Source: a virus (taxonomy: Duplodnaviria > Heunggongvirae > Uroviricota > Caudoviricetes). From it: 5,809 bases of DNA. A program made the position numbers and the translations under genes. The notes under the pieces were generated by a model that worked only from the letters and a program-made list of their open reading frames with translations, had not been told where the DNA came from and did no database searches. This document shows, piece by piece, positions 3,412 through 4,200 of the stretch; position 1 is the first letter of the stretch, and each line of letters opens with the position of its first letter. The stretch is from the IMG/VR virus record IMGVR_UViG_2531839233_000007; one strand, 5' to 3'.

Positions 3412-4200
3412 TTACCCCCTGAAGCCTGGCGGGATCGCACTGTCCGGAAACGAGACGGTGTTAATCTGTCGGAGCAACGTCTCTGGCCGAACACCTTTCG
3501 GCGCGAACAAGCCCTGGTATTCATTGGCGATGCTGTGTCGAATCACCTGCTCAGGTGAAAAACCCTGCTGGCGGAATTTTTCCAGCTCCCGTATCGCCCC
3601 GTTAGCGCCCTGCTCCGTTCGAATCGGTTTTCGCAATGCCTGCCTGAACTGAACCCACTCATGCCAGAGTGTTTCCGGCAACCAGTCAGGCAGCTCGATA
3701 GCCTCCGGTTCGAATTTTTTAGACGCTCGTTTTTGGCGAGGGGGATTTAGGGGGAGATAAGTATTTATATCTTCCTCTTTCTCTTCCTCTGGTAACGCTT
3801 TTTGATCCGTTTTTGTAACGCTGGCAGCGTTACCTTTTCGTTTCAGTTCTCGTATTTTTGTTACTCTCTCGTTTGTAACCGCCCGTTTTTTAGAGCTTTT
3901 CCCGTTATGGCGCTCAAAGTTAGGAAGCGACAACACACCATTAGTTTCGACCAGCCATCCAACCTGAATTAACGCATCAGCAAAACCAGCCATAAAAGTG
4001 ATGCGATCTATTGCACTTTTTGTAACGCCGCGAGCGTTACACTCTGCGTTACCGTCTATCATTTGTTGATCCGCCCATGCCCAGAAGCGAATGACTTTCC
4101 CTAATGCGGCATCTGGATCAATATTCAGAATCTCAGCAAGCCTGAATATTTCCGGCTTATCCGGCGTAATAACTTCGAGCTTTATCCAGTTTGAAGCCAT
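3412..4200 (-). CDS. phage replication initiator / replisome organiser (lambda O analogue, YdaU-like), 262 aa
   Basis: ATG 4200..4198 preceded by AAGGTGA; sits directly upstream of the DnaC-like gene as in lambdoid O-P modules; basic/acidic low-complexity linker (KKRAVTNERVTKIRELKRKGN...EEEKEED) between N- and C-terminal parts; iteron-like palindromes inside the gene. Confidence 0.8.
   Translation of the reverse strand: MASNWIKLEVITPDKPEIFRLAEILNIDPDAALGKVIRFWAWADQQMIDGNAECNARGVTKSAIDRITFMAGFADALIQVGWLVETNGVLSLPNFERHNGKSSKKRAVTNERVTKIRELKRKGNAASVTKTDQKALPEEEKEEDINTYLPLNPPRQKRASKKFEPEAIELPDWLPETLWHEWVQFRQALRKPIRTEQGANGAIRELEKFRQQGFSPEQVIRHSIANEYQGLFAPKGVRPETLLRQINTVSFPDSAIPPGFRG
3790..3900. 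other. putative replication origin core embedded in the initiator gene
   Basis: GTAACGC half-sites at 3792..3798 and 3875..3882 (degenerate), full palindrome 3814..3834, and T-tracts recurring at roughly helical-turn intervals (3799, 3810, 3835, 3855, 3872, 3886, 3897), lying in the linker-coding part of the gene. Confidence 0.35.
3814..3834. repeat. palindrome TGTAACGC-TGGCA-GCGTTAC(C), copy 1 of 3
   Basis: Perfect inverted repeat read directly (core GTAACGCTG-G-CAGCGTTAC, 3815..3833); inside the initiator coding sequence. Confidence 0.6.
4021..4041. repeat. palindrome TGTAACGC-CGCGA-GCGTTACA, copy 2 of 3
   Basis: Perfect 8-bp arms with 5-bp spacer, inside the initiator coding sequence; an extra GCGTTAC half-site at 4046..4052. 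Confidence 0.6.

Follow-up and report, generated by a model that had tools for sequence, protein, structure and literature searches.

A probable replication origin written into the initiator gene of a Rac-like Escherichia coli prophage

The placing of a replication origin inside the gene of its own initiator is a known arrangement, described for phage lambda, where four iterons lie at +349 to +433 of gene O and are followed by a purine- and AT-rich tract on the coding strand. Other examples of the arrangement are P22, SPP1 and several phages of lactic acid bacteria, and at the bacterial oriC the basal unwinding system consists of a DnaA box followed by the DnaA-trios, a trinucleotide repeat. 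Mapped origins are available for no more than a handful of model phages. Here we analyze a stretch of 5,809 nucleotides from a Caudoviricetes virus (IMG/VR record IMGVR_UViG_2531839233_000007), referred to below as the window, which corresponds to the immunity and replication region of a lambdoid, Rac-like Escherichia coli prophage. Within its initiator gene, positions 3790-3900 had been flagged in an original prediction as a candidate origin core. Our comparison, which took in about 190 related loci from many phyla, suggests that the flagged stretch is probably part of the prophage replication origin, which would be nested in the initiator coding sequence, and the best reading of the conserved elements is a bipartite origin embedded in that gene. 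The gene is read from the minus strand with its ATG at 4200, and signed positions are counted from that start.

The central element is a 19-bp palindrome, GTAACGC-N5-GCGTTAC, of which the window holds three perfect copies, starting at 3815, 4022 and 4214 (sites 2, 1 and 0, respectively), with none in 200 shuffled sequences. The copy at 3815-3833 is the one full palindrome that had been predicted within the flagged stretch, and the other two lie 207 and 399 bp away from it. The pentamer GTAAC is found 20 times in the whole window against an expectation of 7.5 ± 2.7, and within the flagged stretch it occurs at 3792(+), 3815(+), 3829(-), 3860(-) and 3875(+). Some of these had been taken for additional half-sites, a claim that survives for one of them: 3792-3798 is a perfect and conserved heptamer, whereas the pentamers at 3860 and 3875 merely reflect the Val-Thr codons of a conserved protein motif, RAxTNxRV, and are not kept in relatives. 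The half-sites on the two sides of the spacer at 3799-3814 are 23 bp apart, or 2 x 11.5 bp. On the gene strand, the last half-site (3792-3798) is followed by a C and then by a tract made only of purines; the corresponding homopyrimidine run on the plus strand, at 3770-3790, exceeds all other purine or pyrimidine runs in the window, the next of which has 12 nt. The AT-rich patch that had been proposed next to the core is real as well: among all 20-30-mers of the initiator gene, 3754-3785 has the lowest stability. The assignment of the stretch to the linker between the protein domains was equally correct, as 3790-3900 encodes amino acids 101-137, and site 2 together with the last half-site encodes amino acids 123-137, which adjoin or lie inside the low-confidence segments of an AlphaFold2 (AF2) model, at 125-134 and 139-149, where the predicted local distance difference test score (pLDDT) falls below 50 between the two domains.

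In the relatives, these elements form a module of regular order in the linker-coding region. Read on the gene strand, zero to three direct half-sites are followed by the palindrome, a further half-site that takes the orientation of the palindrome's right arm, a C, the sequence (C/T)AGAGAAGAGAAGAGAAGA, that is (AGAGA)n, and finally AT-rich DNA. Among 140 distinct modules the last two half-sites of the same orientation are spaced by 11 bp (89 modules), 12 bp (16) or 22-23 bp (9), and the last half-site always faces the purine tract in the same orientation. About 45 of 62 genome loci have the palindrome at two intragenic places, +136 to +172 and +328 to +393, and in these 62 loci it is nearly absent elsewhere in the roughly 5.4 kb. 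An independent set was made up of viral contigs in which the composite GCGTTACC(N0-1)AGAGAAGAGAAGAG occurs exactly, of which there are at least 120; among the contigs listed, 111 hold 480 nt upstream of the composite, and 99 of these have a palindrome in that interval, clustering at -20 to -50 and at -220 to -290, while the remaining 960 kb of the listed contigs contain two such palindromes. Of 65 loci, 37 have a strict (AGAGA)n tract in the linker, and outside the linkers the 643 kb contain one such tract. When the 400 bp on either side of the linker palindrome are compared, the least stable 25-mer falls 18-80 bp downstream of the palindrome centre in 45 of 46 relatives.

The distance between sites 1 and 2 ranges from 189 to 231 bp in 45 loci and is not a multiple of 3 in 18 of them, so that all three reading frames occur at the linker site. 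At site 1 the third codon positions are nearly fixed (GGT in 44 of 50 sequences, AAC in 48, NGC in 45 and GTT in 41), whereas the third positions of most other codons carry some 0.1-0.3 bits of information, and the residue specified by the NGC codon varies (S, G, R, C) while the nucleotides stay. The purine tract keeps AGA arginine codons in hosts of 57-67% GC, in which they are rare, and the rare TTA and CTA codons are likewise retained in high-GC hosts. Because the linker site occurs in three frames, synonymous positions are fixed and AGA codons persist in high-GC hosts, selection acts on the DNA and not on the protein. The same observations bear on the explanation that the conservation comes from protein-level constraint on the NAxxVT and ALPREEKRRE motifs, or from chance, the tract being no more than the joint at which exchangeable domains recombine. 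The sites do translate to recurring peptide motifs, the tract does sit at the boundary between a conserved N-terminal domain and mosaic C-terminal domains, and a shared 20-nt sequence could promote domain shuffling. We nonetheless consider this explanation very improbable, since constraint on the protein does not account for the reading of the linker site in three frames, for the constant nucleotides of a codon whose residue varies or for the rare AGA, TTA and CTA codons, and a role as recombination joint would follow from origin function rather than compete with it. A planctomycete metagenome-assembled genome (MAG; locus L138) speaks against it too: the open reading frame (ORF) with the N-terminal domain has just 115 amino acids there, and the full module, with its palindromes of the GTCAC type, its half-sites and its purine tract, is found downstream, entirely outside the ORF, at +756 to +900 from the gene start.

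The sequence of the half-site varies among the relatives and divides them into classes. GTAACGC is the majority class; the others are GTCACGC (L115, L117, L124, L131, L133, L136, L137 and L141), GTTGCGC (L119), CTAACGC (L127), GTCCGC (phages epsilon15 and phiPSA1), GTAGAC (Raharianne and L143), CCGGAC (L144) and GTCACAC (L135). Wherever both clusters of a genome can be read, a single class extends over both of them and over the isolated half-sites, and the class goes with particular protein clades, while the (AGAGA)n tract remains constant from class to class. If, as is likely, the gene carries the binding sites of its own protein, any switch of origin specificity would have to change DNA sites and encoded amino acids together. 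The GTTGCGC lineage illustrates such a joint change: the three half-sites by site 1 have changed together, and the residues of the helix that they encode have changed with them (V to A and L to Q), fitting the altered half-site, which is a further argument against constraint on the peptide. Class matching, this lineage and the module outside the ORF in L138 point to a sequence-specific DNA-binding protein that would have evolved with its sites.

For the same three reasons the protein-motif explanation is disfavoured together with another, in which the palindromes would work as hairpins in RNA or single-stranded DNA, be it as a signal for mRNA stability or processing, as an antisense terminator or as a single-strand initiation signal. 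Each palindrome can fold into a hairpin of 7-9 bp (-7.6 to -9.0 kcal/mol, z -2.3 to -4.6), and a terminator scan picks 3815-3833 with the following CTTTTCGTTT on the plus strand. However, terminator-like sites are no commoner in the window than in shuffled sequences (4 versus 2.6 ± 1.7), there is no Rfam match in the window, the arms are kept in sequence within a class while the loop is free to vary, and isolated half-sites, which have nothing to pair with, share the class of the palindrome arms in their genome. A hairpin function is thus hardly to be expected. Close E. coli relatives add a weak indication of constraint on the arms, which vary at 4 of 56 positions compared with 69 of 433 elsewhere (Fisher p 0.054).

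The initiator is the sole gene that constantly accompanies the sites, and its own N-terminal domain, as the only candidate that is always present, is likely to be the binding protein. The genes upstream differ among relatives, and the gene downstream varies by lineage, encoding a DnaC-like, DnaB-like or lambda-P-like protein; shifting neighbours around a constant initiator are the pattern of a phage replication module. The protein matches PHROG 2509, 'replication initiation protein' (E 3e-88). It has no Pfam match at E <= 0.01, 40 family members have none at E <= 1, and the Pfam and NCBIfam searches found no Rep_3-type domain or Rep family match in the initiator. In the AF2 model (mean pLDDT 75.8) an N-terminal domain of amino acids 1 to about 124, with helices at 16-25, 29-46, 61-68 and 73-80 and a hairpin at 84-91, is separated by a disordered linker (about 125-175) from a helical C-terminal domain (176-246). 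Site 1 encodes a low-confidence loop of the N-terminal domain. The N-terminus, MA(G/S)xWIK, is found family-wide.

Homologues of the N-terminal domain, with 31-72% identity, occur in Enterobacterales, Pseudomonas, Burkholderiales, Xanthomonas and other Gammaproteobacteria, and also in Planctomycetota, in Verrucomicrobiota (Akkermansia) and in MAGs labelled Ignavibacteriae, Thermoanaerobaculia, Anaerolineales and Latescibacterota. Named phages that have it are Salmonella epsilon15 and SPN1S, Escherichia TL-2011b, Xanthomonas CP2, Pseudomonas phiPSA1 and Ralstonia Raharianne. In a collection of 1.84 billion cluster representatives, 6485 match the domain at E <= 1e-3 and 4013 at E <= 1e-10; a scan of viral contigs with the protein as query returned near-identical E. 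coli prophages only. The C-terminal parts of the family are mosaic, and some are DnaT-like. In epsilon15 (L145, 1342-2511) and in Vibrio phage 1.211.A (L149, 1504-2508) the end of a gene for a C-5 cytosine DNA methyltransferase overlaps the start of the initiator gene, and in Xanthomonas phage CP2 (L146) position 1 of the circular record falls within the initiator gene (ORF40).

The features of the window are collected in Table 1. Over its central 901 bases, the window matches the chromosomes of many cattle and human isolates at 100% identity and three deposited phage genomes, such as vB_EcoS-666R9, at 99%. The DnaC-like loader gene lies directly downstream of the initiator gene, and its product is the presumed partner of the initiator C-terminal domain; genes for DUF1627 and DUF977 proteins complete the gene order after it. 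The additional half-site at 4046-4052 stems from a duplication of four codons that is also seen in Enterobacterales relatives. In the gap between the ydaT-like and initiator genes, just before site 0, there is a perfect palindrome with 8-bp stems, TACCGAAC-N6-GTTCGGTA, at 4243-4264, which the terminator scan picks on the plus strand. Repeats of the form TGAAC-N5/6-AGTACAT, spaced by 24 bp, flank the racR-like gene on both sides (4967-5040 and 5526-5572) and resemble the OR and OL operator sets of lambdoid phages.

Table 1. Positions of the origin-related elements and genes in the window.
Feature	Window position	Strand	Position relative to initiator gene	Remarks
Site 2, linker palindrome GTAACGC-TGGCA-GCGTTAC (GTAACGCTGGCAGCGTTAC)	3815-3833		+368..+386	codes G123-N-A-A-S-V-T129
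Site 1, palindrome GTAACGC-CGCGA-GCGTTAC	4022-4040		+161..+179	in the region coding the N-terminal domain; codes C54-N-A-R-G-V-T60
Site 0, palindrome GTAACGC-TCGCA-GCGTTAC	4214-4232		-32..-14 from ATG	directly 5' of ribosome-binding site
Last half-site, perfect GCGTTAC on gene strand	3792-3798	-	+403..+409	codes A135-L136-P137
Extra perfect half-site, GTAACGC on gene strand	4046-4052	+		12 bp from site 1; codes G50-N-A52
Spacer T5-GATCCG-T5 between palindrome and last half-site	3799-3814			GATCCG is a degenerate middle repeat
21-nt all-purine tract on gene strand (AGAGGAAGAGAAAGAGGAAGA)	3770-3790	-	+411..+431	degenerate (AGAGA)n; candidate unwinding element
AT-rich patch, gene strand TATAAATACTTATC	3756-3769		+432..+445	adjoins purine tract
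Initiator gene, ydaU-like	3412-4200	-		ORF; 262 amino acids
DnaC-like helicase loader gene (ydaV-like)	2659-3405	-		NCBIfam PRK12377, E 3e-153; DnaC, E 7e-91; Pfam IstB_IS21
cII/ydaT-like gene	4278-4700	-
cro/ydaS-like gene	4697-4951	-
racR-like repressor gene	5031-5450	+

By binding to its own gene, the initiator could assemble a complex in which each of the conserved elements has a part. Dimers of its N-terminal domain would bind the 19-bp palindromes, and further protomers the flanking half-sites, one helical turn apart. The last half-site would then set a protomer in fixed orientation against the purine tract and the AT patch, where the duplex is predicted to open, and the C-terminal domain would recruit the DnaC-like loader encoded downstream and thereby the host DnaB helicase, so that replication would start here. 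The cluster at 4022-4052 and the palindrome at 4214-4232 could belong to the same nucleoprotein complex or provide feedback on expression of the gene. A more tentative possibility, which we regard as rather less than even, is that the (AGAGA)n tract is a universal unwinding or loading element recognized by the initiator, a phage counterpart of the box-plus-repeat of oriC, with the tract read by a constant part of the protein (F95-x-R-H-N-G...K104-x-R106) and the half-sites by a variable part of the N-terminal domain.

Yet another possibility is that the palindromes serve as operators, at which roadblock or DNA looping would allow the initiator or a different regulator to control expression of the replication genes, with the origin elsewhere. 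Palindromes about 200 bp apart recall looping repressor systems, and site 0 abuts the ribosome-binding site. One data set also hinted at helical phasing of the distance between sites 1 and 2, with a 10.5-bp period in the 45 genome loci (R 0.36, naive p 0.003); the signal was not reproduced in 72 viral contigs (R 0.20) and we rejected it. Among the relatives, moreover, site 0 is confined to Enterobacterales, at -32 to -44, and operators alone leave without explanation both the half-site arrays at 11-12 bp and the purine tract with its low-stability patch, kept in one orientation to the last half-site. The immunity regulators are unlikely to bind the GTAACGC palindromes because the TGAAC-N5/6-AGTACAT repeats, the immunity operators of the window, differ from them in sequence. 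We therefore judge this alternative improbable, though less so than the protein-level and hairpin explanations. The same sites, site 0 above all, may nevertheless mediate autoregulation alongside origin function, which is the main competing interpretation; site 0 could be an autoregulatory or an auxiliary origin site, and no promoter-like sites were found near the palindromes, site 0 included.

As for the origin itself, several points weigh against it. The location of site 0 beside the ribosome-binding site is typical of autoregulation; the sites are spread over about 420 bp and do not form a compact iteron array; the purine tract of the window departs from the family consensus, with no 15-mer fitting (AGAGA)n at 12 or more of 15 positions; the phasing of the distance between sites 1 and 2 was seen in one data set and not in the second; the binding protein is read from co-inheritance only; and we found no experimental data on the element or on any family member in the open-access literature. 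The T-runs of the flagged stretch count on the same side. They are dense, as had been noted (T makes up 47%, with eight runs of 3 or more), but the periodicity of 10-11 bp ascribed to them is not significant in a periodogram of 3790-3900 (p = 0.05 with mononucleotide shuffles, 0.12 with codon shuffles), the power being higher at 14-15 bp, and DNA bending by phased T-tracts is thus left without statistical support. The only meaningfully spaced T-runs are the T5 runs at 3799-3803 and 3810-3814, which are the spacers of the 11.5-bp half-site array. On balance, the proposal of an origin core has gained strong comparative evidence, in conservation across phyla, in a site read in three frames and in adjacent low-stability DNA, while the bending and two of the half-sites adduced for it have fallen away. 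Its limits were also drawn too narrowly, since 3790-3900 holds the linker palindrome and the last half-site but omits the likely unwinding element at 3756-3791 and the palindromes at 4022 and 4214, all of them parts of one system.

Although an origin inside an initiator gene is not new, we found no description in open-access papers of this family, of its palindrome and half-site layout, of the second cluster within the domain-coding region or of the invariant (AGAGA)n tract, nor did we find this element in the open-access literature on oriJ, ydaU, the epsilon15 origin and the purine repeat. The signature of palindrome, half-sites at 11-12 bp and purine repeat points to the probable origin in a large family of initiators, not covered by any Pfam model, whose 6485 cluster representatives include phages of Escherichia (among them prophages of Shiga-toxin-producing strains), Salmonella (epsilon15), Xanthomonas, Ralstonia, Pseudomonas and Akkermansia, as well as planctomycete genomes. 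If our interpretation holds, it would offer a predictive rule for the annotation of origins and a natural collection of matched initiators and sites in which to study how specificity evolves when the sites are inside the gene of their binder. It would also make the DNA-opening role of a purine repeat that is constant across phyla directly testable, and it would explain the odd conserved peptides NAxxVT and ALPREEKRRE as dictated by the DNA.

Among known systems, the Rac prophage of E. coli K-12, with oriJ and ydaU-ydaV, is of the same prophage type, with the gene order racR, ydaS, ydaT, ydaU, ydaV. The C-terminal third of its initiator and its loader gene are near-identical in DNA to those of the window, and ydaU has a repeat cluster of its own and AT-rich DNA in the linker. 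As annotated (L001, 3120-3977), ydaU encodes 285 amino acids and starts just after ydaT, compared with the start at 4200 in the window. YdaU differs in having another N-terminal domain, annotated as DUF1376, and its gene lacks the GTAACGC palindromes; at the same linker position (L001, 3505-3590) it carries ATGTTCAAACA four to five times, in both orientations, followed by AT-rich DNA, and the repeats of the window are different. This cluster is likely the position of the Rac origin oriJ. Just downstream of the AT patch, window positions 3739-3757 and L001 positions 3630-3650 can be aligned again at CCCCCTAAATCCCCC, which codes LPLNPP, and from about 3690 downward the two sequences are nearly identical. 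The return of the alignment marks the recombination joint between a module of N-terminal domain plus origin and the C-terminal domain, which places the joint of the exchange just past the AT patch. Because K-12 ydaU shares the C-terminal third and differs in the N-terminal domain and linker repeats, the domain and the repeats have been exchanged as a unit, and the window, with its different domain and repeats, therefore carries an origin specificity different from that of K-12 Rac.

The iteron origins of plasmids (RepA, RepE, pi) resemble the locus in using one half-site in direct and inverted arrangements, in having one palindrome near the start of the initiator gene and in the proximity of an AT-rich unwinding region. 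Here, unlike there, the protein has no Rep_3-type domain, the direct repeats are heptamers at 11-12 bp instead of iterons of 17-22 bp, the elements are within coding sequence, and a helicase-loader or helicase gene lies alongside. With oriC the locus shares a terminal initiator box of fixed orientation, then a repeat of short period on one strand and then AT-rich DNA; the repeat, however, is of period 5 and of purines only, and the initiator is not an AAA+ protein.

The origin that had been invoked for comparison, lambda ori within O, is not related by detectable homology: the initiator has no match to PF04492, and the hhalign probability is 0.1%. Neither do the sites repeat the lambda pattern of about four tandem iterons of 18-19 bp spaced by some 20-24 bp: the linker of the window has one full palindrome and half-sites with a period of 11-12 bp. 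About 200 bp upstream, within the sequence coding the N-terminal domain, there is a second cluster, a third palindrome precedes the gene, and the tract is a pentanucleotide purine repeat, (AGAGA)n, constant across classes and phyla. The arrangement itself is nonetheless that of lambda. The sites occupy the linker-coding part of the initiator gene at matching positions (+349 to +433 in lambda, +368 to +409 here), they are of 18-19 bp with dyad symmetry, an AT-rich tract with purines biased to the coding strand, the candidate for melting, comes directly after them, the gene for a helicase loader is downstream, and in both cases the N-terminal domain and the sites are swapped together between phages.

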